A program made the translations under genes and the position numbers. Positions 30,619 through 64,000 of a DNA stretch of 64,000 nt are shown here, piece by piece. The notes below the pieces were generated by a model. That model searched no databases. It saw only the letters and a program-made list of their open reading frames with translations, and had not been told where the DNA came from. The DNA lies in the NCBI RefSeq assembly GCF_006345805.1, contig NW_021836129.1, forward strand, positions 124,001 to 188,000, read 5' to 3'. Origin of the DNA: Octopus sinensis. Lineage: Eukaryota. The first letter of the stretch is position 1, and every line of letters begins with the position of its first letter.

Positions 30619-30624
30619 ATGAAA

Positions 30625-39019: not shown

Positions 39020-39416
39020 TATTAGGCGTGCCTGAGGGATATCACTCGTAAGTCAGGCCTGAGTTGTGTGGGCACTTGCTCGAGTCCTAATATCTTAAAA
39101 TGTATTCGAGATCCATTCTATTATATAATCTTAGAGTTCTATTTCATGAATTATGAGTTCTCAGGTAGAGAAATTGTACACTAAGACTAGCTTTACGGAC
39201 ATATTGTATACTTTTATCTTTAAAAAGTAGAGATTTGTTTACCTAAAAAGTGTTTTTTTTCTTAGTATGCCCTCTGTATTTCATAATAGAGTGCCAAGTT
39301 TCTTTGTATGCTTCCATTTTTCCTTGTGTTGTTTTTTGCATCGCCTACTATTTTATATTCTATTTTTAGCGTTAATTTTTAGAAATTTTTTTCCTATTGT
39401 GTTGGCCAATTTATCC

Positions 39417-39915
39417 TCAATACCTTCTAATTGGTGGTCTGTTGTCGTGATTTATTATTCGTGGCATCTCGTAGCGATTCCTCCAGATATGTGATGAACA
39501 AAACCGGGAATATGGCGTTTTCTTAGAGGGTGTCTTTGTTTGTTCCAAATACTCCGGATTTCTGTTTTCCCAGCTAAATAAATCTTTCTCGGGCAGTGGT
39601 GTTAATATTTGTATCATCTTGACCCAAAATTGCTTTACTAGATTCTATTAAGTCAATCCATGTTATCATCGCTACATCAATTTCATTAAATTTGAGTTTT
39701 GGAATTCTCGTTATGTTTAATTTTTTGATATCAGTCCTATTCAAAAGGTCCGATTTTGATTTAAGTTCGTTTATTGTTCTCGGAGAAATTTTCTTTTTTA
39801 ATCGTGAAGATAAAATCCTGGAAATTTGAGGTGCAGAAACAAATGGATTGTCAGAAATATAACGTAGTATAGAAATTTTTTCGTTGATAGAAAATCTAAA
39901 ACAACGACGCATCAT
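39417..39915 (-). mobile_element. pogo/CENP-B-like transposase N-terminal remnant
   Basis: RFSINEKISIL..(HTH)..PKLKFNEIDVAMITWI resembles the pogo/Tigger DNA-binding region. Confidence 0.6.
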
Positions 39916-40494
39916 AAAAATACAATTTAACGTGTAATGAAAATTTTAAAATGTTAATTTAAAAAATTATTTTTCATAATACTTGAGGAGCGGATTCGAG
40001 AATCATATTTCCACAGTCAATGACTCCGTGGTTTGGAGAGCCAGTCAAAGTCATTATTACCCACGAAAGCGGGAAATCCATTTTGTCGAAAAAACACAGC
40101 CAAACTCTCATTTCATTCTTTAAAGTCACTCTGAGTGTATATTTCCAGAATTCATGTGATGTTGCTCTTTGTCGGTTTGAGAATAAATTGACCAAAATCT
40201 TCTCTGACAGGTCATTGTTGCGTTCTTTTTTTGACCAGTATGATTATTATTTCGAACTTATGGACCTACGAACGTGATTAATTGTGACGAAACGGGATCG
40301 TATTTCAAACTTCTTACATAAAAATTAATATTTAGCTTTAGTTATACATGTCGTTGGTTAAAGAAAGTAAAGGAAAAAATGACTGTTTTATTTTGTTGCA
40401 ATACCGTGAGTAAAAAAATGTTTCTTTTATTTGGGAAATATAAATCTCCGAAATGTCTGAAAAACTTTAATCCAGAAGTTAATGAAGTTATTTA

Positions 40495-41881
40495 TAGGGT
40501 TTTCGGATCAATATAATAATTTTTCGAATCAATATAATAATTTTTCGAATCAATATAATAATTTTTAAATTCAAAGAAATTCAAAGAAAAAAAGATCAAA
40601 AAGAGTAAATTATCGTTATTCTTGAATCACTTCAGAATTTGAGCATCTATTCAAATACGTTAACATCTTTCTGTAGAAGGATCCGCAATGTTCACTTGTT
40701 ATTTCTTTGAATTTAGATGTAATTAGGCATCTAAGATCTTTTTCATTCTTGGCATTACCACGGACTACTAAGTTTTTCCATACTGAAAAACATTTTCAAT
40801 AGGATTTAAAAATGGACAGTATGGTGGCAAAAATTTCCTGATTATAGTTGATACTTCAGTATCATTTTCCAGTCCACGGTAGTGATGAATCCTCGCATTA
40901 TCCATAATAAAAATAGGATTAGTAATATCTTTCGATAAACATAATGCTTTTATTTCTAGTAAAACGGTTTTGAAATCTTCTCCGTTAACTGCCTTATCAT
41001 GAATTTTATGGAATAACATCCCATATTTATTCATTGCAGCTACCACCGATATGTTTCGACTGCGGGATGCCGAAACTGATAAATATGCCGAATGTCCAGC
41101 TTTACTTCTTCCTCGAGAAGGTCTTGTAACGACCTTAAAGCCAACTTCATCCAAAAATATTAAAGCTTTATCATTATGCAAAGCTTCCAGATTTCTAAAA
41201 TCTGTTGCATATTGTCTTCTGCTTTCTATAGTTGAAACTGAGTTTCTTCTTTCTGGTATTAATGTAATTCTTTTAAGAGTATAATGAAAAGAATTTAAAG
41301 CCTTGGCCACGGTGCTCAGTGATAATTTTAAATTAAATTTGAAAAATATCCATTCGCTCAAATCCTTCAAAGATTTGGTGCAATCTTCATCAACATATTC
41401 AACTAATTCTTGTTTCATTTCGTCTGTTAGCTTAGATCTTCTATCTCCACCACGTTTAGATGGAATAACTTCCCCCGTTTTAAAGAACTTTTTCAAAATA
41501 CTGTTAACGGTTTGGTATTTCTTGTTGAACAGTTGAGCAATATCTTTGGTTGAATATTCATCCAAAGATTTGTTTATTATACTTTCTCTCACATCATTAG
41601 ATACTATTTGTCGGCGAACCATCACTGGTTCGATTGAATATTCAGAAGCATTTTGATTATGTGAATCCATTACAGTAAATTCAGGTCAATAAAATTTAAA
41701 TTTTAAAAAATTATTATATTGATTCGAAAAATTATTATATTGATTCGAAAAATTATTATATTGATTCGAAAAATTATTATATTGATTCGAAAAATTATTA
41801 TATTGGTTCGAAAAATTATTATATGATTCGAAAAGTTATTATATTGGTTCGAAAAATTATTATATTGATCCGAAAACCCTA
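40495..41881 (-). mobile_element. IS630/Tc1-superfamily DD34E transposon nested in a pogo remnant
   Basis: TA TSD; TIR TAGGGTTTTCGGATCAATATAATAATTTTTCGAA; ORF 40768-41670 with FLDEVGF, IMDNARIHH, LPPYCPFLNPIE; C-terminal frameshift. Confidence 0.94.
41705..41871. repeat. 21-bp subterminal tandem array (about 8 copies) of the DD34E element
   Basis: Unit GAAAAATTATTATATTGATTC; about 3 inverted copies at 40505-40566. Confidence 0.92.
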
Positions 41882-43337
41882 TAAAAATCTTTAGGAAATT
41901 CATGGATAATGTCAGTATATTTAAATAATGGTTGCACAAAATTAATCAAAGATTAATTAATAAAAAGAAAAAAATCATTTAAATAACGCCAGTTATCACA
42001 AATGTTGTGAATATTCAAATATAATTGTGTATAATCTATAATCAATCCATTTATTGTTAATATAGCCGAGAAGCATATCTTGCAAAAAAAATTAATTTTT
42101 AAAAATGACGAAATATATGAATTCGGACTTGAAAATTATGAAATCTCCAATTTTTGGAAAATACATATATAGGAAAATTTCCAATTCTTTAGAATGAGAT
42201 AACCTCGATGTTATAATGTTTTCCACCTTATTTAGTCGAGAAAGGATTTAGCCAATTAAAACATATTCGAACTATGGAGAGAAACACAAAATTATTTGAA
42301 TCTTTTGAATTTGAGAATAAAAAACAATTTTACCTGAAAAATGGATTCAGGCTGAGATTTTTTATTTCTGATCAGGCAAAATTAAAAATTTTAATAATTA
42401 AGGTAACTGGTGTTCCTGATCAAAAAGTAGGCTGAACACAATTATGGCCATTTTTGAAGATACTGATTACACAGTCTTCTAAAGAAAGAAATGTACAACC
42501 TAACGAGAAAAGAAATTCAAGACTTTATAAAGAAATATGTTTTTTTTTGTCAAGTCAAATTATGTATGGCTACTAAACCTCCAACAAAATTAGCGATTGT
42601 TTTTTGCTTCGTCATGACCCAGATCAAACGTGCAAAATAGAAAATGCACTTTATATAAGCAATTGAATGTAAATAAGTACTTTGTTATTTATGGACTGAC
42701 AAGAATTTCATAATACACGGAGAATGTCGCAATATAGAAAATTTGCATTTCTCATGATTAAAAAACTAAAATCTTGATTTTAAAAAATTTTCTTAAAATT
42801 TATAAAAGGTAACAACTTGATTAAAAAAATAAGTTTAGGGTTAGGGTAGGTGCCAGTTTACGGGTTATGTTTATTTTGATCAATGGAAGTATACTTGAAA
42901 CAATCGCATTGTGGACATAAAATCATGAGAACATGTGGCTGAAAGATACTTTACTGTTAAACAACGAATAAAATATTCATTTGAAATTTGAGATAAGGTA
43001 AACTCAAATGATTCTAAATTGTAGGATTCAAAAAGGCTATGTTACCAATACTTGACTTGCACTCAAGAAATTAGAAAGACAATACTGACAAGTTTGTACA
43101 ATAACTGAAATTCTCTTGTATCATAGGGTAAAAGTTCGAATGAACGATGATACCACCAAGAAAATACTTATGAAAAGAATTAAAAAAATAAATAACATAA
43201 ATTGTCTTGATTGCTTGCTAATAAAAAATTCGAATAAACAGAGAAGAATTTATAAATCACGATACCATGATTATTTGATGTTTAAAACAATAATTGTGTA
43301 GCTAAACTTAAATTTCCTTCCAAAATATACGATAGAA

Positions 43338-44560
43338 TAGTGGTTCCCAACCTTAAGGTGCTCGCGGAACCCTTTTGAGCTAAGTTATTTTTTGCGGAAC
43401 CCCTTCAATTCAATTATTATAATTTAACTTAAAACATAATAGTAATAACCAAAAACAATTTTAATGTGAACATTGAGGTAATTTTTTATCATAGCATAGT
43501 TGTGTATCGTCCAAAATCATCAAATGATCTTTGATGTCCTGAAGAACTGTATTGTCCAATGATGATTTTGATTCTTCGAGATACTCTTGTAAAACGGCAA
43601 AGCATGCAATATTATTATCTACAGATGATCGCCAAAATTCGAGTTTCCGTTTTAAGGCCATTACTTTTTCATTCAAAATAAAAACTGTCTGATATTTTCC
43701 TTGTAGTGATAATGTAAATTTATTCAGTTTTTAATAAATTGAAACCAAATATGCAAGTCTCTGTAACGAAATATTGTTTTCCAAATTTTTGTAAATTGAA
43801 AAATTTCGTTTCTTGAGAAACACAATAAGCTCGTTTCGTAAATCAAACAAACGTTGCAGTACCCTTCCACGTGACAACCATCTTACTTCTGTATGGAAAA
43901 GTAATGATGTATGATTGGATCCCATTTCATCACACAATATTTTAAATAAACAAGATTGGAGAGGTCTTTTTTTAACATAATTAATAATTTGGATAGCATC
44001 TTCCAAAACTTCACTCAATGAAAAGGAAATATTCTTCGACACCAGAGCATAAATTCATAACAAAAAATTATGTAACGTGTTCGGAAAATTTCGATTTTCA
44101 TAAATATTATGATTATCAAGTCATATTAAAGTATAAAAAGGCAAATATTAAAAAATTTTAATAGAAATTGACTTGAAAGGAATAAATCGAAATAAAATAT
44201 AAAAATGATGAAATTTAAAACTGTATAATGACAAAATTAAAGTTCATGCGAATTATTCCTTCATAATCAAATTGAAATAAACCAATATAGAAAAACATAA
44301 AAACGACAACAAACTAAATCAACTACGTGTATCAGCGTGCTCTAAATTATAAGGCTTGCTATTAAAAATATTTTAATTAAACAATTTTTAATAAATATAA
44401 ATTTTATTTATATTAATAAGACATCCCATGATGAACTATACACCGACAAATTAGAGTTGCGAATGAGGTTTCGTTTTAGCGTAGCAACGGCTCGGCGTTT
44501 ACGGCGAAATCGATATAAAAAATTCCACGGAACCCCCGGACCCCAGGTTGGGAACCACTG
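43338..44560 (-). mobile_element. hAT (Buster/Charlie-type) element, internally deleted
   Basis: TSD CGATAGAA; TIRs (T/C)AGTGGTTCCCAACCT; LLFHTEVRWLSRGRVLQRLFDLR; empty site near 12325. Confidence 0.95.
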
Positions 44561-46007
44561 CGATAGAACATTCAAAAAGACAGAATTTGCAAATAAAATA
44601 CATTTCTGCTATAAAATAAATGTCTGTTTTAAGTAAATTTCTGCGTCTTGATTTGTGAAGCATTTTGATTTTTTCTTATTTGTAAAAAATATCAATTAAA
44701 ATCTTAAAATATTTTTTTATTAAGAAATTTTTTAAAGAACATAATACTTTCAAACCATTATATAGGCGAGAATTTTTAATATTGAGAAGATAGATTATAT
44801 GTTAGGTTGTTAAAGAATGCAATATCTGAAAATTCTCAATATGATAATTCAACAAAGATAAATTCGAATTCACCTTCCCAAAAGTTAACTTGGGTTCTCC
44901 GTAATATACAGAATGAACAGAACGTTAAGAGTGTATGTGTCAAAATATGAATTAAACATTGGAGCCATAGTATTTATTTTAAAATTACTTAAAAGGTTCG
45001 AATTCAAAAGGATTATGGAACGAATCCATTATTGAGATTAACCAGGTCCAAACATCCATTTGATTGGTCTACCAGTAGTCAATTTAATTAATCTTCAAAA
45101 AAACAAAAACCAAAAATATTATAAAAATAAACATTGATGGCAAGAATGATCGAATAAAAATTAAAAACAGAAATGCACCCATCCATGGGAGCTGCCCTTC
45201 AAAACAAGAGTCTAGTTCAAAAAATTGAATTATAGTTCATTTAATTTAAATTTTTGTTCATTTTGCGAACAAAGAACTCTTTCACATCTTCTAAAGTGTT
45301 TGTATGGCGATAATACAATAAGTTGTGCTTATTTGCTCTATAGTTTGATAGATTTCTATTCTTTTTTTCATCTGATTTTGATTAATTAGTAAATCATTCT
45401 TTTTAAAACATTTTTTGAAATAATCAGTCAATTTCAAATTTTTCTTATTCTTTAAATCTTTTCCAAGTTAAATCTAAACTCACAATATTTTTAAAGTGTC
45501 TCAAAAGGTGTATTTTTCGACACATTTTCCAACTTATCCATCATTTCATACGTTTCTAATATCGTTGTTTTGTCTTCGGTCCCAATTCCATTATAAAATT
45601 CGCGTCTTTTGACTAGATCTTCATTTTCTTCAGATATTACTTCAGTTATTATTTCTTCCAGGACTTCTTTCCCGGAATTTTTATCTTCAACTAATTCTTC
45701 TCTACTTTCCTCAATTTTTCTTCCAACAATTAATTATTGTTGTTTCTTTAAGTTCCATCCACCCTTTTCTGATAAGTACCATAATCTTTCGCTTATCTAT
45801 ATTTTTCAAAGATTTAGGATTAATTGTTGTATCTTCTTTCAAATTGAACATAAAATATATTAGGAAGTTTGTGTAATATACTTTAAAACATTTTATTATA
45901 CCCATGTCTAGAGGTTGAATCAAAGATGTTGTGTTTTCTGAAGAAATCGTCACAAAAAGCGAAGGTGCCCCAAGGCGGGGTTTTTGTTGGGGCGGGGTTC
46001 GACTTTA

Positions 46008-46190
46008 GTTAGTTATGTTACCCCGGCTTCACTAACACGTAGGAAGCCGGCTGCAATCAGGTAGCGAGACGCGAAGATCGGGCGCTCCCAGAGATCCCGA
46101 ATCCCAATAGGCGGAGACAAGTGAGGCAATCCAGGACAGGGGAGAAGGTCTTCGGGGGTGAAGGAACGGTATGTTTCGAAAAGGTCTTCA
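46008..46190 (-). mobile_element. 183-bp 3' end of a LINE
   Basis: 13-bp TSD GGGTTCGACTTTA; (TAAC)n-like tail; LLPCPG..IRDLWERP C-terminal motif; empty site near 13700. Confidence 0.8.
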
Positions 46191-46318
46191 GGGTTCGACT
46201 TTATAACGTTCTTAACACGTGAATAATTTATCATATTTAATTCAATAAATTAAAAATATTTAGAAAATAAAATAAATAACATTTAATATCGTCAGTCTGT
46301 TTAACTATCAAACAATGT

Positions 46319-46588
46319 CGAGAAAATTCAAGAAAAATCCATAAACCTACTGAAGGACCATACCGACAGGAAAATTGTCCATCGAACACTGGAGTCTCTT
46401 GTAGAGGCAAGTGGGAGGGATCGTGGAGATGGACCACAAGCATTTCACCGTACATACAGAAAGTGTGTGGGGTCACGGTCTGAACATCGTGAAAAGATGG
46501 CTCGACTGTTGAGAAGTGTCGGAATCACCTGAACACGTTAGTTAATGGTTAAGACGGTGATTCTGTTTTTGGCTTAAATAATAATAAT
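46319..46588 (+). mobile_element. Short 3' fragment of a LINE
   Basis: TSD AATGT; (TAA)n tail; empty site near 13822. Confidence 0.7.
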
Positions 46589-47916
46589 AATGTGAATTTA
46601 ACCGGTTAACATTAATGACGACTTCTGGTGTAACGACATACCAACTTTTTTTTTCGACGACGGGGACAATCGGTCTATTTTGCCTCAGTGCTTCATTGGC
46701 TGGGCGAAGAAAGTTTAAAAGGTGTGACGAGTAAAAAAAGTTATGTACCATTAGTCTAGATTAGCGTTACTTTTGCAATTGAAATCGCTTAGAATGTACC
46801 TATACAATATTTAAAATAAATATAAGGCTCGCTTTCTCATAGAAAAAAAACCGATCCTGCAGGATACAGTATCAATTAAAATTTTATCTTCTGAGTAACT
46901 AAACTGTTAAATTTGAATAAATTGGTGGATGTCTGTACAGATAGAGCTAAATATATGATCGGAAAATTTCTGTATAATATTCAGAAATAGTCAAAGATGT
47001 CACATTTGATACCATCCATGCCACTGGGAAGCAAATTCCGTTTTAAGTTTTTATGTGGTATCAATATCCGAATCCTATAACAGATATGGATCTTGAACAA
47101 ATGATGTCTTATTAAACAGAGTTAGCAATATTCGATCCATGTAAACTTTAATTCTCTAGATTACAAACATCCATATTTGATACAATAAACTACAACAGTG
47201 ATTCTTAACGGGAGCACAATGGTTGTGATTCTGAACAGATAATATGATTTTAAAGCCAAAGTCATTTTTAGCAAACATGGATATCAATAATTCTTGATTA
47301 CATGTAAATATATACCAAAGATTTAGTGGGGAAGATATAAGCTTGGTCACTTTAGGGATTCCAAGACAGAAAAGGAGTAGCCCAGAGGGTCTCCCTGTTG
47401 AACTCCTGAAGCAGACGGGATAATGTCGGAATCATAGATAAGGGAGGACGGTTGGCCGTATGATTAGGAAGTTAGCCCAAATAAAGAAGGACAACGAATT
47501 TGAAATTAATTATAAAAATTGTCTTATGATGAATCAAATATTCACAAAAAATTCGAAAATGCTTGAAAAAGGCCATCATACAAAATACCACAATTGATAG
47601 CAAAATCAGGAAAACTCCATACTATTCGAAAGTCTCTAATATTACCAGTCCTGAATTTAATGGTTGATTGTGATTCTCAACAGATAATATGATTTTGAAG
47701 CGAAAGTTATTTTTAACAAACATGGATATCACCATTCTGAATTACACATTGAAAAAAATATCCTCAATTGTGGAATGAAGATGAAACGCTTGTAATGGCA
47801 TTTTCTTGTAATGACGTTGTCATTAATGTTTTCAATGCGGAACCGGATGTCTTAAATATACTCTTTTTATAAAAATGACATAATTATAAAAGTCATTAGA
47901 AATTGTGACATATATA

Positions 47917-49377
47917 CACCCCTCGTCACCGAAAACCGGACAAGCCATTTTTTATGATTTTATTAATTAAATACGAAAAATCAAAAACTTAACCTTAATA
48001 TTTTTACTTAATAATAATAATTGTGTATTAATTATTAATTATGCTATTATAGAACTAATATTTAACGCAGAATTTTAATTTAGCTAAGACATGTAAAACC
48101 GGACAAAATTTTTATGGATCTAAAAGTCGTTGAAAAGAAGCTAAAAATGTATAGTCAAAGAAGAAGTCACCTTTCAGATTTCCTGAAAGGACAAATTATT
48201 GCATTTTATAATCATAATATGACTTATCGAATGATTTCTACAAGTATAGGAGTCCCAAAATCAACTGTATCAGATGTGATTCAGAAATTCAAAAAACTGG
48301 ATCAATTAGCAGACATCCGGGAACTGAAAGAAAGAAAATATTGAAAGAGGAAGAAATTTTGATTTTAGTAAAACTATCAAATAATACCTCTTATAAAAGT
48401 GCCAAACTCTTAGCATCGAAATTAAAACTATGTTCAAAAAAAATTTCAGCAAGAATAGTATCTCGAATTTTAAATAAGAAAGGATTATATGGCCGAGCTG
48501 CTAAAAGGAAACCTCTTTTATCCACAAAAAATATAATTTTAAGACGTGAAATTACGAAATCATTTTTAAGCATTTCCGACGAGACATGGAAGTCGGCAAT
48601 TTTTACCGATGAATGGTCTTTTGATATTTTTAATATCAATAAGCATCAAATAGTGTATAGAAAAAATGGTTCTGCGTACAAAAAATGCAATATTGTCCCA
48701 ACTGTAAAATTCGGTGGTGGAAAAGTAATGGTTTGGAGCAGTTTCCGTATAATCGAGTCGGTAATCTTGTTTTTATTGATGGAATCTTAAATAGCGCAAA
48801 ATATATTAATATTTTATTCAATAATATATTCGAATGTATCAAAAAATTCAGAATAGACTCATTAATCTTACAACCAGATAATGCACCTTGCCATAAATCT
48901 AAAATAATACAAGATTATATTAAAGAAAAAAACATTATTTTACTTCAATGGTCGGCTCAATCACCGGATCTAAACCCGATAGAACATCTATGGGCAGAAA
49001 TGAAGAGAGAATCATCAAAAAATGTAGTCAAAAACAAAAATGAACTAAAGGACAAATTAACAGAAATATGGAATAATATATCACCAGAATTATTGAAAAA
49101 ACTAGTAATGTCTATGAAAAATAGATGTTATAAAATTTTCAGTGCAAATGGTGGACATATTAACTACTAAATGACTTGTTTTTATTTTTATCCGGTTTTA
49201 CATGTCTTAAGTAAATTGAAATTCTGCTTTAAATATTAGTTCTATAATAGCATAATTAATAATTATTATACAATTATTATTATTAAGTAAAAATATTAAG
49301 CTTAAGTTTTTGATTTTTCATATTTAATTAATAAAATCATCAAAAATAGCCTGTCCGGTTTTCAGTGACGAGGGGTG
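47917..49377 (+). mobile_element. Tc1 DD34E element with long (~190 bp) IR/DR-type TIRs
   Basis: TA TSD; TIRs begin CACCCCTCGTCAC(C/T)GAAAACCGGACA with inner AAAACCGGA repeat; frameshifted transposase (IFTDE, DNAPCH, QSPDLNPIEHLW, ANGGHINY). Confidence 0.95.
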
Positions 49378-50944
49378 TACCTGTTACAAATACCTAATTT
49401 TTTTTAATTTTTAATGTAAGTTGGTGATATGAAGCATCATATTTTTCCGTCTTCTCCAAATAAAAAGTGTCAACTAAATCTTGTAGATCTATAAAAGTTT
49501 ACATAAATAGATTTTAGCATTAATTAATGTTTATAGTAGATTTATAGGTTTTAAACAATTTATTCAGATTTGAATTTTTTAACTTTTTAACTTAAAATCA
49601 TTTTTCAAAAAAGTATGCAAAAACTTTATACCTATGCGGACCTGTCAAAATTTTTTCAATCGGATAATGGCTCAGAATTAACAAATGTGTCTCTAAGAAA
49701 TCTTTGTAAAGAGTTCAACGTAGTTCAGATACATGAAAGACTAAACAATCCGCGTACACAATGAATTGTAGAACCATCACAAGAAAACTCTTCAAAATGA
49801 TAGACACAAATAAAAAAGTCGCTGGAAATTTTGGAAATTAAACAATATTAAAACTTACTTTTCATACAAAAATCATCATATTAAATAAAAAAATTAATCG
49901 TTCAACAATTTTTCATAAAAATTAAACTCCATATTTTCTGATACTGTTCGTAAAACTTTCCAACACAAATCAGAATAATAAAATAAAACAATTCTTTGAG
50001 AATGTTGATTTTATGAAATATCTCATTCCATTATACCTAAAAAAAGATTTTTATATATGACGACTGTCAATGTAACTTATCTTTGTTATAATGCTAATTT
50101 ATTCAATCATTAGGTAATTAAACTATCAACAGTATTAAACTATCAAGAGTATGCGATTACAAATATAAATCAAATATCATGTTATTCGGATTTTCTATCA
50201 TAACTTAATTCGGAATATTAAAACTTGTTTATAAATTTGAGATCAATCAACAATGAAGTAATTATTAATTCGGGCTTGTTTTCATTTCAATTCGTTATCA
50301 GGAAATAAATTTTCTAAATATGTTTTCAAATTCTCTGTTGTCATTCTAAAATAATCAAATACAATGATTAAAGAATACTCTGCCATTTTGACTTGTTCTT
50401 GCTGGTGAAACCTTAAAAAGATGGAAAAAATTTATTACAGAAAAGGAGTTGCTACTTCAGTTTATGTCTGGCCGACTATTTAAATTGTTTACAAGTTATC
50501 CAGGTACTAAATATAAGAAATTTAACAATTAAAAACACGGATTTTTCACAGACTGGCAAATGACGACAAAATTGATTAAATCACCAACACTCTTAAAAAT
50601 AACTGATCTAAAAATTTTTTAGTTAATCTTTATTTGTTGATTTTTGTTTATAGACCAATATTTTAAGTATCCAAAACATATCACATATATTAAAAATATT
50701 TAATTTTAATTAAGATAGTTTATGAAAAAAATATGTCATGGCACAAAATCTAAATTATCCTGGCTGCATGGATTGTAAATTGGGCGGTTCTCTGTAAGCA
50801 AAAAATTACTGTTTTTTGAAATTTCCATTTTTTTAAAACGTCTTTAGATTTTTAAAAACTTTAATGAATTTCTAAAATGTGGGATTTAATTTTCAAATAT
50901 GTGGGATTTAAATGTTCTCAACGTTGATTATAAACAACATAAAT

Positions 50945-51055
50945 AGCCCCGAGTGGATGAGGATTTTTTCGTCGACCGCGAAACTCATTGAAAAGAAGAC
51001 AAATGACTTCCAAGAAACCAGCTGGCTGTACCAGAGGGTATCTTGCGCACACTGG
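50945..51055 (+). mobile_element. CRE-clade C-terminal fragment
   Basis: TAKLIEKKTNDFQETSWLYQRVS parallels IAKMTNDRRETSWLFQRIS of the 35635 element; absent near 19210 in unit 1. Confidence 0.65.
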
Positions 51056-51349
51056 TGAATCCTGATTTTCAAATTATCAGTTACGATAATTAATCATAAA
51101 TAGTCTATCGTCCTTGCAATAGTATAATCATATAAATAGGTAAATCTATCATTTATATTCCACTCATAAATCCAGAAATTATTAAAAATAAGAAAAATAT
51201 TCACAACCAAAAACGGCTAATTAATTAAAAACTGCCTGCACCACAACTCATGTTTTGGAATTAAAATAACAAGTCAAGACACACCCAGCCCTTATTATTA
51301 GTAAATAATAATCGAAATTATTTAAAAATATATTAAAAAACTGATTTAT

Positions 51350-52009
51350 TTAAATATCGACAATAAAAAATATGTCAGTACGATTACTAGTTGTAACAAT
51401 ATTCATACAATGATAAGTAACAGCCTTGATCTCCGTACCCTAAAATAAAGAATATTATTTAAAACTTGTTCATGTTTTTTCAAATCAAACTCCTCTCCTT
51501 TTCTATAAATGAATCAAAAAACCACAAATCTTACAATCTACATTCCAAAGACCATCCTCCATCACAATTTTGACCAAATTGAGTAATATTTATATCCTAA
51601 ATATTAAAAAAATAACCAAAAAATACATTTGCGACAAAATATTGACCACAAGAGAATATAAAAATTATTTCATCCAGGAAATTGTAAAGTAAAGAATATA
51701 AATCGTGTCCTACGTTAAAAATAATCACAAAAAACCTTCAACGGTAAAATCAAAATAATTTTTAAATTCAACTTTATTTATATTTGTCATATATCCGTAC
51801 ATTCCGAGGGCAGCCTAAGATTAAAAAAATAAAAATGCCAATTCAAAGGCTTCTTCGATATTTGGAGACCCTAAAAATTTCATGTTTAAATTATACAGGA
51901 ATGGATTCTAATTTATTAATTTAATATTTAATACTGAAATCAGCAGGATGGTCCAAATCTTAAAAAATTATTATTTAATTTACTAACATTCATATCCACA
52001 CTCCCCCAT
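51350..52009 (-). CDS. ZBTB8OS: Archease, copy 2 (apparent 1-nt deletion in exon 2)
   Basis: Collinear with 19393-20056; exon 2 reads GCT GAT TTC A|GT instead of GCT GAC ATT CA|GT, so it is either a pseudogene or a consensus error. Confidence 0.85.
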
Positions 52010-52088
52010 ATGACAATAAAATTAAATTTAAACAATTAAAATATTTTTTATAAATATTTTTTAAATTAAATTTTGTGAGTTAGTTATT

Positions 52089-52670: not shown

Positions 52671-52833
52671 AGTTATTTATTCGCAATAATAAGATTTTTG
52701 TCTCTATTGGCTTAATTATAAAAATTATAATCGTTTTGAACTATAAACTTTCATGTAAAATTATTTTTCATAATAAAAAAATTTTAATTTCGTTATTTTA
52801 ATTAATAAATAATAAAATTTATAATAAATTATT

Positions 52834-54048
52834 TTAAAATAAATCAAATTTATTTTCTTGTTGTAGCACTCTAATATCCTCCAACTCTGAATAATTCTTT
52901 TTCAATTTATTCTTCATTTCCATTATCTATAATGAATTAAATAAATGTTTAATACAATATTTAAATCTTTCTTTGCCTCATTCAATGATTCATACACGTT
53001 AGAATGCCTTTTATTTATTATTTTGTTATTAAATTCACGAAGTTCCTCTGTAATCTGTACCACATCTTCAGCCCTAAAAAATGATAAAAATTTCCCGCCT
53101 TTTTCTTTCCTTTTCCATCAAATCAAAAGCCGAAAAATTTTTCTTAGCCACAATCTGGTCTAAGGGACTGTTCTTGGCCTAAAAGTCAATTTTTATGTCT
53201 ACAATCTCATTTTCCATAGAAGTAGGAATACGAGTCACATCAACTCCAAAAGGTGCATTATTAATATTATTATTAATTTCTTAAAATTAATATATTTAAA
53301 TTAAATATATTAATAAATAATAAAACTTATTTTTCCAATTTGAATATCAAATATTTTTTGTTGGTTAATTATTTTGGTCTTTTCTCTCCAATCAACCAGA
53401 GCTCGACATACACTGAATATTATAAATAAAAAAACTTTAAACGATCCAATTTTTTCTGAGTCACAATTTTTAGATCGTCGGAAACAATTTTTGGTTTATT
53501 TTTATTCATAATTTTTGATTTTTATCTTAAAATTCATAGAAAACTAATTTTTTACCAATTTTTATTGGAATTTGGGTATTTTGGTGGATTTCGTTTTTTA
53601 AATGTTTCAAAAAACTGTCTAAACCTGAAGAATATATTTTTTAAAATCTGAGTCCAGTGGGTTGATCTAAGACTCAAATTTTTTAAATTTGGTAAAAATC
53701 CTGTCTGTTTTTTGATGTAAAAAAACCGTATGAGTTGGGAATTGAAGTCAGGACGTTTCGGTCGAGAAGAAGTGTGTTGAGGTCACACTCTTTTGGCGAT
53801 TGGACCAAAGGTAGTTGAGATATTTGATTGGCGCGAAGATCAATCCAAAGAGCTTTTGGAGGGAATCAAAAAATGAATTTGGTAATATTTTTAGATTGTT
53901 TTTTGATAGATTTAAGAACTTAATTATTTTAATATAATTACTTTTATGTTTTTTATATTTAGGAGTTCTTTTGGAATTTCGTTTAGTTTGGAATTAGATA
54001 AATTAACTTTTTTTCATTACATTGTTGATATGCTTTAGATATCATCAT
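52834..54048 (-). pseudogene. LRRC27-like, copy 2, with about four single-base exonic deletions
   Basis: Collinear with 20278-21500; single-base losses near 54010, 53855, 53662 and 53521, all in or beside homopolymer runs. Confidence 0.7.
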
Positions 54049-54316
54049 AAGATTGGTAACTTGGTAATATTTTATTTATTTAATTAACAAATAGAATATA
54101 AATATATTAAATTATAATATTTTATTATATAATAGAATTAAAATTAATATTTTATATATCAAAAATGTATAATACAAAACTAGTATTAATATACACAATA
54201 CTTTTTTCTCAATTAAACTAGTAATATAAATCTAAATATTTATAATTATTTATAAATATATTATTATATTTAATAAATAAAGAATTTATTGACTAATACT
54301 CAGCACCTTGTTGTGC

Positions 54317-54867
54317 ATGTCAGGTCAACATATTTCTGACCCAATTACCACAGAAAATAGTAATTTATAATAAAATATAATTAATTAGTAATAACCACAA
54401 ATAAACGTGGTTGGAATGACCCTCCTAAGATGTCATACATGTATACAACCTCTGGATCAGACTCATCCAGCACATCCTCAAATTCAACATCCTCAAAGCC
54501 AAAATTCGATAAAAATGAAGATTTGGGGAAACAGTCCTACGTAATCAACAATTCTCAAAAAATAACATCAGGCCTTGTTAAAGTTGTATAAAAAATAATT
54601 ATTCCAAAGGAGGCTGTGATTGGTAAAAGAATTGACATTCTTAACGAGGCATGGGAAGGAAATTTGCTATCAGAAGAAATAAAGGACTATTTGGTTCAAT
54701 TGATCACGTGCTTGCTCAAACCTGACTATTTTGGCGCCGAAAATATATGCAAGATTATGGCGGTTGACCACATTAAAGAGGTTCATTTTATTACGTAATA
54801 AATTCAGGTCAGTAGGTGGATTGCTGGATATAGAATGCTTATTTCTCAATTAAAAAATAATATATAA
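54317..54867 (+). CDS. SRA1: SRA1/SRAP, copy 2
   Basis: Exons essentially identical to 21777-22328. Confidence 0.93.
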
Positions 54868-54898
54868 GTTTTTTAATTTAATTTTTACTAACATTTTA

Positions 54899-55518
54899 TT
54901 AAAAATCTTCAATTTTTATATAACAGATATTATTTCCCGCCGTTGTAGCGATTATTAAAGCGCGGGAACCAAAAATACGGGTATAAAAATCTCTAAGTTG
55001 CATCAAATTATTTTCACCACTAAAATAGTGTTAAAATTATATATATAAATAATATTTAAATTAATTAAAATATATAATAAAATACCTTGTTACAAATAAA
55101 TGATATTGTGGTGATGTGGGATTAGATTTTTTAAAAGTCTTAACAAAAGACGGTAAATAAACATCAAAAATGGAATAATCAAAAGGAGTAGTATTACGAC
55201 GTAGTACATAGCCCAGTTGTGTTAAATTGGAGTATACAGTCATGACATTACTCCCCAATAGTCCATCAACTATAAGGGACAGGTCATCGGCCTGTAGTAT
55301 TTGGCCGTCTTTAAGACATGTTAGTGAGCCCTTGTTGGTTAGATATAGTATTTCCTCGGGGAATAAGTAATGTTTACTATTTTTTGAATATCCCATTGTT
55401 TTGAAGAAGTTGCCCTAATTTGAAATATATATTTTTTTACTTTTATTTTTACTAGTTCGCCTACTTTCAAGTCTTCTATCCAATTAGCATGTGCTGTTTT
55501 ACATAGTAATGACTCCAT
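54899..55518 (-). CDS. TSEN54: TSEN54, copy 2
   Basis: Collinear with copy 1; retains the canonical L.PEE.LYL motif (YLFPEEILYL). Confidence 0.88.
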
Positions 55519-55805
55519 TAATTAAATAACCACAAGTGGATAAATTATATATATATTTATTATATTATCAAATTTTAAATTTAATTAAATATATATAATT
55601 ATAATGTGACAAATAATTTTAACTTTAGTCCTTTTAACTTTTATTAAATAGATTAACTAACGAATAAGAATGACTTTATAAATTTTTATTTATTAATTTA
55701 AGTAATTTAATAAATATTTTTAAATAATTAATTAGTATATTTAAATTTATAATAAAAGAAGACATAATTTATTGTGGTCCTCTTACTCTAGTGAGTAATA
55801 TAAAC

Positions 55806-57293
55806 ATGAGCATTGAGCAGTCAGTTATACCGATAATTTCTCCTTGTATTCCAGACGAGGAAAAGATTATCCAATCATTGCTAATATTAGATAAGTTCCA
55901 ACAAGATTTTAGACATTTTGTTCAAAAAATAAATCAAAATGTATAAATATGTAACGATTAAAGCTATAGATAGATGTTAGAAAGGACAGATTGTCATCCA
56001 TAAAGTCTAGAATTTCAATTGTTGAGCAAAAAATCAAAAAACTGGACAAATCGGGCAAGGCAATAAGGATTTATTCTCCCTTCAATTTGCCTCAGACAAT
56101 AAAATTTCCAAGAAATGACCTCCAAGTGAGGCCAAATCTTAAAAATGAGACCAAACTCCACTACAAACTATCAAAAGTTTTTTATTTAAATATCTATTAT
56201 AAATTTAAATAAAAATAAATTTATTTTAATTAATTAATTAGAATTTAGATTTAATATCTCAATATAAAAATACTACAATTGTTCCAGCCTCTTTTGATTT
56301 ACTAAAAGACAAAGAAAAGACACCATTTAATGAGGGAATTGGTCGGCCTCCAAACAATTTGAAAAGCACTGGAAATTTTCTTATATATAATACAAATATA
56401 AATGCGTAATTTATTTTTATATTTATTATTAATTTTTTATTTTGATAAATAGATTTAAAAACTATTCTTTTGTTGATCCTCTCAACGTTGTTTCAAAAAT
56501 TACAAAACCACATGAAAAAAGACATGAGCCAGCCAAGGCACCGGAGACTGTGACTTTGGGCCATCAATTCGATCCTTTCCAGCGTTTAAATTTTGACTAC
56601 AATCCTATTTTGGGTGATGTACCTCAAATCAAGGTCCCCGAAAGTCTTCCCGTGCTTTCTGGTTAAACTCAATTTGTTATTTCAGGGATTGTAAGTGATT
56701 TGAATTATCTCCCTAAAAAAGAAACGGGGATTGCTCCGTCGATTATTTTGACCGAAATCACCGTGGATTTACCGGATCTTGATTACGAATTCACCGAGGA
56801 TCCCGTAGGCTCCACACTACCAAAGGTCGAGACTTCGCATCCCGAATCCAACATTTTTCCAAAAACTGAAATTGCAGAGGAAAACATGACTTTGTCATCA
56901 AAAAATGAAATCGAGGAAAATTTTGTAGTCGAAGATGACAAAAAATCTGTCGAGGTCACTCCGAAGCCTTCGGGGGAACCGAAACTGAAGGCTCTGCTTG
57001 ACTCAATTCTGGACGCGGGAGGGATAAATCAGTTCAAATTCCGAAAAAGAAAAGAAAATGAAACAAAAACTGAGATTGAACCAAAAAAGGAAGAGGAAAA
57101 AATTGATATATTGTCACAACTCAAAAAAGTGTTAAAAAGAAGAGGAGAGTCTCTAAAAGGGAAGGGAGAGGACTATGTAGAGCCTCCAAAGTCGAAGAAG
57201 TATGAGGAGTCACCACTAATCAAGAGTATGTCTAAAGTCATAAAGAGTGAATCAATGGAGGAGGATGAAAATGAGGCTGGCTGGTCGGATTAA
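55806..57293 (+). CDS. WASHC1: WASH1, copy 2
   Basis: Same exon structure as copy 1; intact; about ten amino-acid differences. Confidence 0.95.
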
Positions 57294-58740
57294 ACTCATT
57301 TTCATTACTAATATTATTATATAAGTCACATTTATTGGGTTTCAAGTATTTCTATTTTCTAGGTTTTCAAAAAAAATAATATTTGATAATATTTTGAGCT
57401 AAAAATGGCTTTTTATTTTTTTCTTGCCAAAACAATAGCGAGATTTTTACGTATCAACTTTATTTTTAGCTAAGAGGTAGAATATGATAGTCAGCTGTAT
57501 TATCTTAAAAAATTGACATTGTTGTTAAAAAATACTTAATTGTCCATGGTTTGAGCTCTTAGTGCGTTTTCAGACATCCTTAATATTAATTTTAAAACAT
57601 ATTATTCCTGGAAAGACTGGCAGTCGAGCCAGATGCCGTGATTGTAGGAAGGAGGCACAAGGTTTCGTATTTCAAATGAGGCAGCATTATTTGTTATTCC
57701 TTCTAATATTGATATCCCTTAAAATCCGTCAAAAATTGAAATTGGCGTAATCAGCGAATTGCCCCTGAGGATGAGGGACCGATCATTAATCAATTTTGTT
57801 ACTACGATGACGTTATCGAACAAAAATTTGATAGATATGAAACTCGCTGGATACGTATATCCACCCATATTTCTTCTGGAGGTGTAGCACATCTAGAATT
57901 TGTTCAATTTATCAAAATGTTTCTTTTGGGTATCGTTTACATTCTCATCATCAAATTGGTCGTCCATTGCTCGATCGAGTGTACCACCAACTACATGAGG
58001 ACTGTCGACAAAAACTTATTTCATAAAAATCCTCTTTAAATAACAAAAATAAGATTTTTTACTGTATATAAGTCAAAGTTCCGTCTTGAAAAACTTGGAA
58101 ACGACCCCGTCTCGTTTATTGCTTTTTTGAACTTTGGACTGCTTCAGGTGGTCTTGGGAAGTGACTTTCACTTTGATGATAATATTTTTTTTATTTTGTC
58201 ATACACGAATAGGCTTGTTACACCGAATTCTCGTAATTCAACATTTTTTGTCGATAGGATTTACAAGGGTGAGTACAAAGGCAATTTCAAATTCAGACAA
58301 TAATAAATGAAAAATGTTTATCACAATCCACTACTTTCTGGGCGGAACTTTAACAACAAAAAACACTTTCCGCTTTACATAACTGGAAGATTAGGTATAT
58401 ATTGTCCTATTCCTCAAAGTGGGTGTAAAACTATGTGACATTGACGTTACACTCTTGCCTTCACTATACACAGACTAGTCAGCTTGGAATAAATTCACAC
58501 TTCCAGTCAAATACGTTCTGTTATACTTTACTCCCCTAATATATACTTTGTGTCAATTCTAATAAAATGCATGCCGAATAATCTCTTCTTGTCACAAATG
58601 ATCAAAAAATCGAAATTTACAAAATTAGTCTAACTGAATAAATTATTGACTATTTATTTGTGTAGAAAACATTAGTCTACTGAAACTATATAAAGAAAAA
58701 TCAAAGAAACAAAGGACCCCAAAATTGATACACTGTTAAT

Positions 58741-59620
58741 AAAAGTGCAGCTTTGGAGCTCTTGTAAAAGACCCTTCGCTGTGTGGGAAAATGTGACTTG
58801 GGAAGTGTACTTCGACATAGACCCAAAAGAGTGTCATGATGCAATAGGAATGTTCAGATCCGGGCAGATTGATTCACAAACCGGCATAGACGACTACACC
58901 CAATAGATTGTCACTGGCCTTTATACACATCAGACAGTAATACACGTTTTTTAGTACGACCCGTTGACTACCCGATTGATCAGAGTTCTTCAGAAACAAT
59001 TTTCAAATTTTTCACTCTCAAAGTTGATTTGTAAAATATAGAAGCCCCCGTTCCAGCTATCGAACCCGACTTCCATTTGATATCAAGGGAGTAATAGCCA
59101 TTCAGATAATAATCATCATGTTGTTTCTTTTGTTTCATTCACAATTAAAAGGTCCACGGGATTAGATATGAACTCATGAATAGTCAATCTTTGGCCCTTC
59201 AAAGAAAAGGGGCCACAGATTGTGAATATCGAATCCTTTTTCCCAACATATAGTGATTATTTTTTCAATCATAGAGGTAAGCTCAACATCGATGGTTGGT
59301 GGTTGCCTATCATCAGTCAAAACGCTAAATATTCTCCAGTAGATCCATTAAAAATACGATGCATAAGAGGCACTCAGCCTCTATCCGCACTTAACAGAAA
59401 TTTTGCCACATACGAGTACATAGAAGGAACACATTTTGATATGCGATCATATGGACATATCTGCTCAAAAGTGCAGCTTTGGAGCTCTTGTAAAAGACCC
59501 TTCGCTGTGTGGAAAAATGTTATTAAGAAGACTTGGGAAGTGTACTTCGACATAGACCCGAAAGAGTGTCATGATTGATCCAATCCAATCAGCAATGAAA
59601 TTGTTGGTGAGATATTATGA
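58741..59620 (+). other. Endogenous viral element: rhabdovirus-like glycoprotein G, copy 2 with inserted N-terminal segment
   Basis: ORF 59222-59578: WLPIISQNAKYSPVDPLKIRC...GHICSKVQLWSSCKRPF...KECHD; upstream hydrophobic GVIAIQIIIIMLFLLF (signal-peptide-like, other frame); 58741-58981 repeats the copy-1 fragment. Confidence 0.75.
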
Positions 59621-62600
59621 TTAATTTTGTTTTTTCCGTTTATAAAGTCGAAATTTTGAAATAATTTTTAATTTCATTGACTAATAAACTGAAATTAAGA
59701 AGCCGTGAAGACAAGTAAAACGACCGAAAACAGTCCTTCTGGTAAAAACTTTGAAATGAGAGGAAGTATATATAATTTTGAGAAAAAGATTAGAAACAGA
59801 TTAGAGGAATAAAATCGGAAAATATCACAAAAATGACGAAATTTCAGATAATTAAATCACTAAAAGAAACTTCATCACGAAATATTCCTTCTGAATCCAA
59901 TTTAATACACAAAATAAAGCAAAGCTAATTAATAGAACAGTACAACAAACTAAATAAACCGCATCTAATAATCTATTAGGTTTGTCATTAAAAATTTAGA
60001 AAATTAAACAATAATTAATGAAAAAAAGTTTATAATATTATTGAAATAATTATCTGTATCTTTATTTAGATTTTTCTAATCGGTCTATAAAAAGTACATC
60101 TAATTAAATTTTGTAAATTTTTAAGATCTAGCGCCAAACCGTTTATTAGCAATACATGGAACACATAATTAGTTACGCCTACGCAGCGTGGGGAAAAACG
60201 ATCAGCTACATCAATTGGGGAAAATTTTCGAAAATTCAATCAAGAAACTGTCTAAGAAACGGGGTGACGACATAAAGAATGACACAGCTGCTACGCCCAT
60301 ACAAAAAATTTGCGTGAACAAGGGAAGAACGTCAGCGGAAAATGAGGACCCTCCTTTAGACAGTGGTCTTGGTTGGATAATAATAATAAAAGATACAGGC
60401 TCGTAAAATTTGGAATGAATTTCTATTTTAAAAATAAAAAAAATTTTCAAAGAATGAGCTATAATTGAGTTTTTTTCTGTGAAGATGAACTGGGATTAAA
60501 GGTTAAGTGCGTTGAGTGCAACTTAATAAATAAAATAGACTGAACATAATTATAACCACTTTGGGGAAGACCGCATTTTTCAAGATTAAAAAATCTCTAA
60601 TATAAATTGAATATCTAAGAACAATCGATTTAAAGCTAATAATATCGAAAAGGAGGACGAAACAGTTAAATTGAATTTATAATTTCTCCATTACCTAAAA
60701 TTGATTGATACTTTTTAATATAAAATAAAAAAAATTTTTTATTAAAAATTAACGATAAATTTTATCTAAAAATATATTAGGATAACCTAAAATGAAACAA
60801 TTCATTGGAGACAATCCTATTCCCTCTTCGCGTACCCAGAAGATCTTTGGCGTGGTTTTCGACTCCTTAATGACGTTCTCAAGTCACGTGGAGGAGGCCC
60901 TAGCTAAAGGTCTTCGGAAGTGGAACGTCTTGAAAGCTCTGTTAAAGAAGAGTCCAGAGGAATTTCGGTCGGTTATAAAGAAATGCACTCCGATTGAGTT
61001 CCTCTGCAGAAGGAAGAGAAGGCGTTTCCGGGTTACGGTTGGGTCATCATAAGATCGTGTAAGGAGAGTACGGCTGTTGTTGGAGGCAGAGATCACCTAA
61101 TTAGTTAGTTCTAACCTATCTTTCTCGGTGATCTTGGAGTTAATAAATAAATAAATAATAATAAAATGAAACAAATTCCGATAATGTTAATTAAGAAAAG
61201 TAAACTAATAATTAGACGACTCTCAAATTTTTGCTTCCCGAGTTCCCCATAACTCCACTTTGATCTTCCTCGCCATAATCCTCAATCTCCGCCTGGGGCG
61301 TGCAGTCTCTGGGCCTCTTAAGGGACTTGCTGATCTTCATAGAGAAATTATATTTCCGCCAGTCCCTATTTACGGAATTTGCAGAGTCCAGAATTTCACT
61401 GAAGCCATGTTTGTACTCGACAAACATGCTCTCCAGAGTGGCTCTCAGCGTTACAGTCTGGATGTAAGACCGAACACGTTCTTTAATCCCAAGGAGCTCC
61501 ATGTACTTGCGGTAGATTGTTGAAACGATTCCATCCCACGTAATGACAATTGGCACAATCTTCACCTTAGTCTTGTGAATCAGTTGTAATTCACTAGCTA
61601 AAATGTCGTATTTGTGCAGTTTTTCTACTTCCACACTCTTTAGGTTATCTATTGAAGTCACACCCACTTCAATAAGCCATATTAGGTTTTCTCTTTTGTC
61701 GTAGAAAAAAATGTCGGGTTTGTTATATTGAATTTTCAACTCTGTTGGAATTGTTGTATCAACTCGTATTTCTGCCAAGGTGTTGCACATAATACTCTGG
61801 ACAGAGTGATTTTTCAGTCTTCTGGATTTTTTGAATCCAAATCTACGGCACAAGTGCATGTGGATGCATCTCACAATTTCATTGTGTCTTCTCGTATAAT
61901 CCGAATTAAGCATCCTGTTGCATCTAGTTGCCATGTGATCAACCGTCTTATTGGAAGATTTACAGTGTGGACATTTTGAATTAGGGTCTCTGAAAAAAAT
62001 ATTCCTGTCTTGGAGAAATGAAAACATAGCTTCAGATTTAGGAGATATATTCCCTTTCTTAAGCCATGTTGAAGACGATTGAATATCAAAATTGTTATCA
62101 TCAAGGGATTCAAATAGCTTCGAGTGAAGTGTTTTCTTCTTGATATTGGACAGTAAGGAATCAATCTGCAATCTATTCAGTGATTTGGTTATCTCTTCTT
62201 AGAAGTTCGTTCCATATTTACAATGCAGGAATTCTGTGATCGTGGCCATATGAGACTTTCTTTTCTGCTCGGCCCACAGAATTGCTGTCTTTCTTGGGGA
62301 GATTAACTTTCGCCTCTCCAGATTTTCACGAAAGTCAAACATCATTTTTTCCGACCTAAGGTAATCGAGGCAAGCCCTCTTCCAAGTTTGTCCCTCGGCA
62401 AATATAGCCTCTCCTTACAGGCTGGTTTCATATGAATATTTAGATCCATTAACAGCTTCCTGACAAATTTGTCAATTTCATCAAAAACGGACGGTTCCAA
62501 ATCCAGAAGGCCGATATAATAATTGTACAAAGATAAGGCATGTTCATTAATTGCCTTAAACAAATTCACCGAATTTAGTTTCGTCTTCGACAATCTTTTG

Positions 62601-64000
62601 ATACGTTGCTGAACCTCAATCCGTAAATTTTTCAAAACTTCTTCTTTAACAACCTGACTAAACTTATTTTCCAATACACCCAAATAACGGTAACTATCCA
62701 GTCCATCCAGCAGTTTGGCATCATTTCTCAATAAACAACTATTTGTTGCCGACTTCTCACAATTCTTTTCCAAACCTGAAGCTTTAAAAAATAAATCCAC
62801 GTCTTTCATCATACACCCGAGTGTGACCTCATCTTTGGCGAGGAGTTTCAAATCATCAATGAACAAAAAATGGTTCGTAGAAAAAAACACTGAATTTTCT
62901 TGATCGGTATTGACTGATAAATTTGGGTATTTAGCTGATAATAATCTGCTCAACGGATCCAAAGTCAAAATAAACAACTGAGGAGACAGGGAATCTCCTT
63001 GGAGTATTCCACGTTCTATGTTAACAATTCCCAGATGCTGCTTTCCTAATTTGAGGGAGACCTTCCAATTTGGAATTATTGACATTACAAAGGGGAGGTC
63101 CAGTGAGTGAATTTCCGGAGGAATAAGGACGGCCATGAACATTTAAATCCACTCTTCCATTACAATTTTCACTATTATTTTGAGTAGATGCGTCCATAGA
63201 TATGGTTATTCCATTTTGTAAACCAACCATCCGTACACCACAAGAAATTTATATATAAATGAAACAACAATATTCAAACGTATACGCTAATTTCATAAAT
63301 TGCGTGTGGTTGGTTTTGTTCATACAAATTGGGAAAAAATGAATTTTACATTAAAAATCGTATTTTAATGATAATTCCAATACACAATTTTACGCGCAAT
63401 AGGCTTTAAGGTTGGTCTATTGATTGGGACAAAAAAATACATTATTGGTCTATGATAATATAAAATTTCCCCAAAAAGTGGTTTATTTCATAAAATCATT
63501 GTATTTACAGGAATGGCGAAAATATTTTTCCAAAAGCAAGGTTTTTCCCAAAAAAGGGTTCCCCGCAACTCGATTTTTTTAAATTCAAGGTCTCACTGTA
63601 TTTAAAACCAATATTTAGACAGATGTTATTCACGTGTTTTTGTTTTTGTTAAAAATGCTGCTTAAAAATTTAGTACTAACTATTATTGAGTACAATACAT
63701 TGTTTCTTATTTAAAAAGCAATACGATTGATGGAAGTTTAACTGAAATGAACAAGTCAAGATTTCTAAATACAAAAAAAATTTTTTACTAGAAGACTCTA
63801 GATTAGAACCAAATATGGAACAAAAATTGTAATTGCTAAAAATTATATCTAAACCATTAAATCTGAATTTTGGAATTTACATTTGAAAACGCATTATGAA
63901 GTAAACAAATTGAAAGAATAGTCTGAAAAATATTTTTTAGTATAAAGAGATTAATTATCTGAAAAGTTTATGCTGACTGTGTTCAATGTCAGTAATTAAA
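59613..64000. repeat. Tandem segmental duplication unit 3 (runs off the window)
   Basis: Near-identical to 28808-33412 apart from a replaced segment near 60125. Confidence 0.9.
61172..63230 (-). mobile_element. RLE-type non-LTR retrotransposon, copy 2
   Basis: ORFs 62342-63142 (RGILQGDSLSP, FIDD, GRGL) and 61212-62171 (CCHC, RHNE, KPD..LIEVG..KLHKY); frameshifts between them; RT N-terminal part missing. Confidence 0.94.

Follow-up and report, generated by a model that had tools for sequence, protein, structure and literature searches.

The locus at positions 58741–59612 raises the question of what a rhabdovirus-like sequence represents in an assembly named for Octopus sinensis, how it was captured, and whose genome it entered. 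The window, i.e. the whole stretch of 64,000 nucleotides analysed here, lies on a 379-kb contig; the assembly comprises 2.7 Gb and contains chromosome-scale contigs. The first-pass annotation, made from the letters alone, described a glycoprotein (G) gene of a negative-strand virus in an animal genome with tiny introns. Taken as a whole, our reading is probably correct: a broken fragment of a rhabdovirus G, flush with an antisense LINE and segmentally duplicated, in DNA of a likely dicyemid; relatives of flatworm betaplatrhaviruses likely infected the germ line of this animal. What the first reading had missed is that the locus does not stand alone: G and L fossils are numerous and derive from several viruses.

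The viral sequence is split into three plus-strand pieces. The piece at 59306–59575 consists of 90 stop-free codons, which begin with the mature ectodomain, reach into the fusion domain and include no signal peptide. The piece at 58741–58980 covers the middle of the fusion domain and its 3′ part, as judged from homology to the paralogue L045 and comparison with paralogous copies. Its first ~100 nt are a duplicate of 59467–59575, and it carries a frameshift near 58895 and a small in-frame deletion near 58795. The last G-derived codons are located at 59583–59612 and follow directly on the end at 58980 in the paralogous copy. A minus-strand fragment of a young LINE occupies 58981–59305. The resulting order is scrambled: middle, 3′, LINE, 5′, middle, end. 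The 5′ viral sequence starts at ~59306, and host sequence begins at ~59613; the sequence downstream of this point recurs without viral DNA at window position 6642.

Together, the three pieces amount to ~150 residues of G ectodomain, out of ~500 in a complete protein, and the homology ends at about residue 191 of L045. Signal peptide, central domain and anchor are all missing. The locus is a fragment of G, not a working G, and a membrane-anchored protein cannot come from it. Viral sequence joined to host DNA, absence of introns and degradation are the hallmarks of an ordinary, dead non-retroviral endogenous viral element (EVE), which is what this element is. The earlier statements that the fossil has no introns and is non-functional as a protein agree with this picture, and the peptides quoted in support of them were found where they had been placed.

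The gene model itself did not hold. It had joined 59060–59578 with 28532–28815, but the latter interval is a paralogue of 58741–58980 plus 59583–59620. The paralogous G fragment (28532–28807, plus strand) lacks the insert of LINE and 5′ G; that is, a segment of ~600 nt at 58981–59582 is extra in the first copy and absent from the second. This paralogue has frameshifts near 28700 and 28750. The corresponding open frames span 59180–59575 (132 aa, stop-free) and 28485–28703, the latter ending in a frameshift. The hydrophobic, signal-like stretch that had been read as the N-terminus of G is antisense LINE, and it gave no match to G proteins with hhalign. An origin of 58981–59305 from a viral M gene was also considered and dropped, since the sequence belongs to the LINE repeat family.

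Rhabdovirus G is a class III fusion protein. Evidence that the window pieces derive from it comes mainly through the paralogues. The piece 59306–59575 aligned with residues 44–131 of L045 without gaps (33% identity over 88 aa; E 7e-19; 66 bits), and the best score among 500 shuffles, of which 492 were scored, was 25 bits. The paralogous fragment 28532–28807 is 44% identical to L045 residues 98–154. Taken together, the window pieces, this fragment among them, tile residues 44–185 gap-free and in register at 33%, 44% and 42%. The same 5′ piece also matched the G pieces L050, L052 and L114, and a protein search within the genome recovered L045 (390-aa frame, 34%) and L046. The paralogues L045, L046 and L052 passed the Pfam rhabdovirus glycoprotein family PF00974 with 33.7, 45.6 and 36.4 bits, respectively (cut-off 22), and the first two also passed PF24833. 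This Pfam check had been proposed in the first-pass annotation; it succeeded for the paralogues and gave no relevant match for the window's own pieces (0 among 10 and 4 proteins). A copy on C12604 with a longer frame reached 15.8 bits (E 0.025), i.e. it remained below the cut-off.

Comparisons at the level of structure gave a similar division. A phmmer search of PDB with the window pieces returned no matches, and a search of the ESM Atlas with them no usable match; a profile built from six fossil rows retrieved 13 PDB sequences, all of them rhabdovirus G (best E 1.4e-9). Against nine external G proteins, the window piece obtained an hhalign probability of 2.5% (E 0.018), though its cysteines were in register. 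This is the fair test, as the 99% result obtained with alignment A1 is circular, A1 containing the query. The predicted model of L045 (pLDDT 76; the paralogue was folded, not the window piece, and the input alignment included the nine external G proteins) matched VSV G with E 7e-18 and a TM-score of about 0.3. Its best matches were G of VSV, Chandipura virus and lyssavirus, followed by herpesvirus gB. Fusion-domain motifs and fold resemble those of the three G proteins (PDB 5i2m, 4d6w, 7u9g), as seen on the paralogue, whose identity to them is under 20%; the window, in contrast, retains only its ~150 scrambled residues. None of 1068 candidates passed a word-indexed homologue search with L045, and the 26 and 85 pattern matches in viral and metagenome collections yielded no confirmed one. 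The homology to G is demonstrated via the paralogue; direct evidence from the window pieces is weak, and through L045 the assignment is strong.

The fossil is carried on a block at 52673–64000 whose partner at 20131–33412 is 92–98% identical, both being parts of a duplication of ~30 kb. Seven blocks contain the middle G piece with common host flanks (two each on C12600 and C12604, and one each on C6410, C570 and C2378), some of which are probably haplotypes; the insert of LINE and 5′ G is present in two of the seven. A clean pre-integration site was not found: C7555 lacks the fossil with breakpoints away from the fossil edges, and four other stretches were uninformative. An older tier of duplication, which precedes the younger one, relates window positions 6642–20135 and 36489–52088 (about 80–95% identical).

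An assembly chimera or contamination with live virus would be another account of such a locus. The assembly is indeed mixed and redundant, and the best read set may come from the assembly's own sample: X1, X2 and X4 represent one sample (X4 is a second run), and X1 may be the assembly's own. Against this stand the seven blocks, which combine common host flanks with independent mutations, and the short-read contigs, which contain both junctions. An X1 contig spanning 59269–59496 bridges LINE and G, the joint 58978–59583 is also present in X1, and the plain junction without the LINE insert occurs on a separate X1 contig. Moreover, rhabdoviruses replicate without a DNA stage. We regard an artefact as hardly credible. 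The contigs of X4 and X3 left the fossil uncovered, which is no proof of its absence.

A domesticated viral protein, with the G fragment expressed as a fusogen or a receptor decoy, is very improbable. The 270 stop-free nucleotides at 59306–59575, the coverage of the locus by one X2 contig and the 390-aa frame with a hydrophobic N-terminal stretch kept by L045 are what such a role would build on. The scrambled order and the missing signal peptide, central domain and anchor speak against it, as does the frameshift common to five of the six copies that cover its site. The two 5′ G pieces differ by seven non-synonymous and two synonymous codons out of 87, as under neutral drift, though these numbers are small. 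For the middle piece, 11 and 12 differences were counted in six non-independent comparisons, too few to be read.

Any function of the locus would lie at the RNA level, for example as a putative source of small RNAs, which we give about one chance in four. Genes with Piwi domains were identified on four small contigs. One X2 contig contains a spliced gene, described below, and another runs from G 5′ through G 3′ into the LINE; together they give a weak hint of transcription. X2 is not on record as RNA, and the G contig contains an internal jump at a shared word of 30 letters, which the assembler could have crossed.

The LINE piece is the key to the question of capture. A genome search with the segment 58981–59582 produced 70 matches (40 of 47 candidates scored), nearly all of them within its first 325 nt. 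The loci matched are LINEs, complete or incomplete, whose ORF1 is rich in cysteine and whose ORF2 contains endonuclease and reverse transcriptase (RVT_1) domains. By tblastn, 58981–59305 encodes ORF1 residues 349–391 and ORF2 residues 16–91 on the opposite strand, i.e. the 3′ end of ORF1 and the start of the ORF2 endonuclease, and is 96–98% identical to L027, L029 and L032. It bears a 70-nt deletion at ~59163, between short direct repeats, which is absent in the C2378 copy. The assignment to a LINE rules out another candidate, namely an LTR element with G as its envelope gene.

The LINE is 5′-truncated exactly at the G piece, and this flush junction (59305/59306), which is observed directly, is common to the C2378 copy. 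At the other side, the LINE breaks off within the start of ORF2 at 58981, with no 3′ end, tail or target-site duplication; the 3′ end was either lost or never present. Read on the minus strand, the locus runs in viral genomic sense and then in LINE sense. Since both senses coincide, the polarity is that expected of target-primed reverse transcription followed by a switch onto viral genomic RNA, and template switching at 59305/59306 is plausible, with an even chance of being correct. In this scenario, a negative-strand virus would have replicated in dicyemid germ cells, and a LINE reverse transcriptase, having started on its own RNA, would have switched to the genomic (minus) strand, the step to which the even chance applies. 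Local duplication and deletion would then have scrambled the pieces into their present order before the whole block was duplicated.

Alternatively, the LINE may have been inserted later into a longer integrated copy of G, the rest of which was removed by rearrangement; the fossil and its host would be the same. The two routes are about equally likely, the later insertion being perhaps a shade less so. An identical flush junction arises from 5′-truncated LINE insertions, the piece is still as similar as noted above to intact copies, and matches to non-LTR proteins cover 19% of the fossil loci. Nor are viral ends clearly enriched at non-LTR elements: among 46 ends at 17 loci (positions approximate), three lie within 50 nt of one, and random points do so in 3.6% of cases at the same loci and in 1.5% at control loci. 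Against a later insertion, G is broken at roughly its first mature residue, neither of the two copies with the LINE shows upstream G on its far side, and the polarity agrees with a copy made from genomic-strand RNA, which was available, as shown by the C9340 insert described below. The first-pass annotation had suggested copying by non-LTR reverse transcriptases. A link to non-LTR elements is supported by the flush junction; a LINE 3′ end and a target-site duplication are absent, and the expected enrichment of ends did not clearly appear.

Of the three viral ends near non-LTR elements, two represent one duplicated event, and all three are in the same sense as the element, unlike the window. 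The survey of loci gave no support to antisense polarity as a general rule at fossil ends. At L109:3295–3568, L050:1467–1658 and L111:5998–6767, a viral piece is closely followed by the 3′ part of a same-sense CRE-like non-LTR element; these places are candidate chimeras with viral plus-strand RNA. Direct fusions of viral sequence to a retroelement are also known as virus–retrotransposon hybrids in Aedes cells (PMC6797480). Those involve LTR elements, positive-strand viruses and episomal DNA, whereas here a non-LTR element and a negative-strand virus are combined in a fixed chromosomal copy.

A search of the assembly for further viral genes, which had been recommended earlier, revealed more copies of G and L; N was identified only on chromosome C9, with no match on the small contigs. 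At least 33 matches to the L family PF00946 were obtained (43 candidates scored), 29 of them on 15 small contigs and four on chromosome C23. The 15 include the contig of the window, where L sequence occurs about 60 kb off; a physical linkage of the window G with an L gene does not exist. Additional G pieces occur on C9340, C8699, C8694, C12600, C9480, C4577 and C4523. The most complete arrangement is found on the minus strand of C9340 (L050:1511–8184), where an unassigned segment, an ORF of 427 aa, one of 260 aa, G and L follow one another in order, G being frameshifted and L broken. For the 427-aa ORF, possibly an accessory gene, neither Pfam families nor Atlas clusters gave a match. This insert spans four TG+A7 gene-junction tracts, so that genome-length viral RNA must have been a template in the host. 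On C8699, an open G frame of 390 codons (L047:4686–5855) begins with a hydrophobic stretch and ends before any anchor; there is no non-LTR match within 1.9 kb of it.

The top matches of the L pieces are trematode rhabdoviruses (44–47% identity over ~350 aa). The best 10 of the 120 listed matches comprise seven named betaplatrhaviruses and three unnamed records. The L pieces on the parasite side, as the small contigs will be called, belong to at least three lineages, which are about 50% alike. In a careful maximum-likelihood tree of L, four fossil rows form a clade (support 100/99) that is sister to Beihai dimarhabdovirus 1 plus P0140 (99/95), and support of 100/97 separates the betaplatrhavirus side from lyssaviruses and the dimarhabdo group. 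This tree omits three parasite rows that were short, long-branched or non-overlapping, three chromosome rows and 17 of 43 references. In a quick tree, all seven parasite rows fell on the betaplatrhavirus side (SH-aLRT 96), and three C23 rows fell opposite on long branches. In both trees, the L pieces group with the seven named betaplatrhaviruses and lie closest to Beihai dimarhabdovirus 1. The references were the top matches to one fossil only, and neither an outgroup nor rows of alpha- or gammaplatrhaviruses were among them.

The fossils on octopus chromosomes, namely a degraded L on C23 (L125:3802–5636) and an N on C9 (L077), belong to a different, dimarhabdo-like lineage. The window G would belong to the same radiation as the L clade on account of its likeness to L046, a G piece with a linked L gene. 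The nearest G representatives are 22–26% identical, and no match to a G clade was obtained.

The genus Betaplatrhavirus (Beihai dimarhabdovirus 1, psilorhabdoviruses, sphaeridiorhabdoviruses and Himastelon rhabdovirus; PMC12451637) provides the best L matches and shares the side of the tree with the fossils. The fossils themselves, however, are set apart in a long-branched clade that comprises three or more lineages. Known hosts of the genus are trematodes, cestodes and worm-infested animals (PMC12451637). The source of Beihai dimarhabdovirus 1 was pools of fish gills that contained monogenean reads, and flatworm rhabdoviruses are described as exogenous and confined to Neodermata (10.1101/2021.12.15.472606). 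The evidence on the host of the fossils points to a dicyemid, and they are filed as relatives of the genus, not as members.

This evidence concerns the small contigs, which constitute a separate compartment of the assembly. CpG observed/expected ratios around 17 loci on small contigs range from 0.83 to 1.04; the values for comparison are 0.45 (C23), 0.22 (C9) and 0.69 (C15, around an Hsp70 gene). Hsp70 genes occur in two sets within the assembly, and rDNA in two types. An HSC70 gene on a small contig has two introns of 26 nt, as read by eye. A host WASH gene with tiny introns (23270–24760, plus strand; PF11945), of which a second copy lies at ~55800–57293, marks the window as part of the same compartment. 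A spliced X2 contig skips a GT..AG stretch of 47 nt in this gene and has 24 gap letters in the second copy, which gives introns of 47 and about 24 nt for the WASH gene. The early claim of a tiny-intron animal is borne out by these genes. The median intron length in Dicyema is 27 nt (PMC6543705), and the genome of D. japonicum is reported to have 36.7% GC, 49% repeats and many copies of LINE ORF2 (PMC6736024).

The second type of rDNA includes a short 18S rRNA gene of 1569 nt on C8223. It matches R2 and F3, primers used for dicyemid 18S (PMC6778094), at 23 of 23 and 21 of 22 positions, respectively, as did none of 200 shuffles. R2 matched in four of 155 loci, which included the chromosomal 18S ends; all four are rDNA of small contigs. 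The chromosomal 18S copies are 76% identical there. Contigs with this rDNA, including C8223, carry a repeat found in the window. Two rDNA copies on small contigs differ from each other by about 5%. One small contig encodes a BiP protein with 100% identity to P0018, a record filed under octopus, and with 54–66% identity to the other 119 listed matches; P0018 is probably parasite sequence annotated under the name of the octopus. A myxozoan was the first candidate for the host and was dropped after the BiP comparison and the matches to dicyemid 18S primers.

The small contigs combine features of Dicyemida, namely dicyemid primer sites in the 18S, introns of close to 27 nt, and a cephalopod as host. 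The window contigs very probably belong to a dicyemid co-sequenced with the octopus, and the infected lineage would not be the main organism of the assembly. This assignment is based on primer sites, intron size and context, in a comparison that contained no dicyemid reference gene or 18S. It is improbable that the contigs come from the octopus itself, or from a flatworm or another passenger. One assembly holds all of the sequences, the matching BiP record is octopus-labelled, the nearest viruses are flatworm viruses, and the link to the 18S contig was made for some fossil-bearing contigs, not for every one; were the host a flatworm, an affinity to betaplatrhaviruses would be nothing unusual. 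These points are outweighed by the second, short rDNA with dicyemid primer sites on small contigs sharing window repeats, by introns of 24–47 nt, by CpG that is not depleted, unlike at the C9 and C23 loci, and by the chromosome C23 fossil, which stems from a different rhabdovirus group.

The kind of EVE is already known; what is likely new is the host phylum. Rhabdovirus EVEs of insects and ticks are likewise intronless, broken pieces among retroelements that were duplicated by the host (PMC2987831, PMC10974309, PMC11907880). They differ from the present case in host, the cited reports dealing with arthropods and vertebrates, and in the partner LINE, which here is flush and antisense. Among titles and opening lines of abstracts in mostly non-subscription literature, no report of a dicyemid virus or EVE was found. 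In the accessible portion of a virome preprint covering 31 phyla, Dicyemida appear only in its tree, and the supplements may list dicyemid viral reads (10.1101/2023.11.03.565523). Exogenous members of the fossil clade may already be included among the cephalopod rhabdoviruses of Rey-Campos (2023).

A broader proposal joins three elements: a radiation of dicyemid rhabdoviruses sister to Beihai dimarhabdovirus 1, capture by LINE template switching, and an origin of the rhabdoviruses in cephalopod transcriptomes largely from dicyemids, which are kidney parasites, and not from the cephalopods. Jointly, these have somewhat less than an even chance of being true; if they are, these would be the first viruses tied to the phylum of dicyemids. 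With germ-line fossils of three or more L lineages, a supposedly flatworm-specific group of rhabdoviruses would reach into a second parasitic spiralian phylum, which is relevant to the suggestion that rhabdoviruses are carried between hosts by parasites (10.1101/2021.12.15.472606). The fossils also serve as a warning that this assembly's unplaced contigs, along with the proteins labelled on their basis, would be parasite sequence.

Several minor observations concern the same compartment. A substantial parasite genome in contigs of up to 1.3 Mb seems to be present among the unplaced contigs, for example C7755, C8223, C8597, C8702 and C8703. Exons of ATG9, PRMT5, SRA1 and SEN54 were located in the window at 923–1294, 9564–9857, 22053–22256 and 22530–22880, surrounded by non-LTR elements of the R2-like and CRE-like kinds and by Tc1/pogo/DDE transposons. 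Immediately to the left of the window (L058:463–3341), apparent frameshifts interrupt a tiny-intron gene for dynein heavy chain; it is possibly a pseudogene, or the frameshifts are long-read errors. Finally, window positions 58795–59529 form a permuted unit, G 3′–LINE–G 5′, of 735 nt that is closed by an X2 contig. A DNA circle would account for this closure, circles of 600–800 nt being abundant in Dicyema (PMC6543705), but a tandem duplication or a jump by the assembler would do so equally well.
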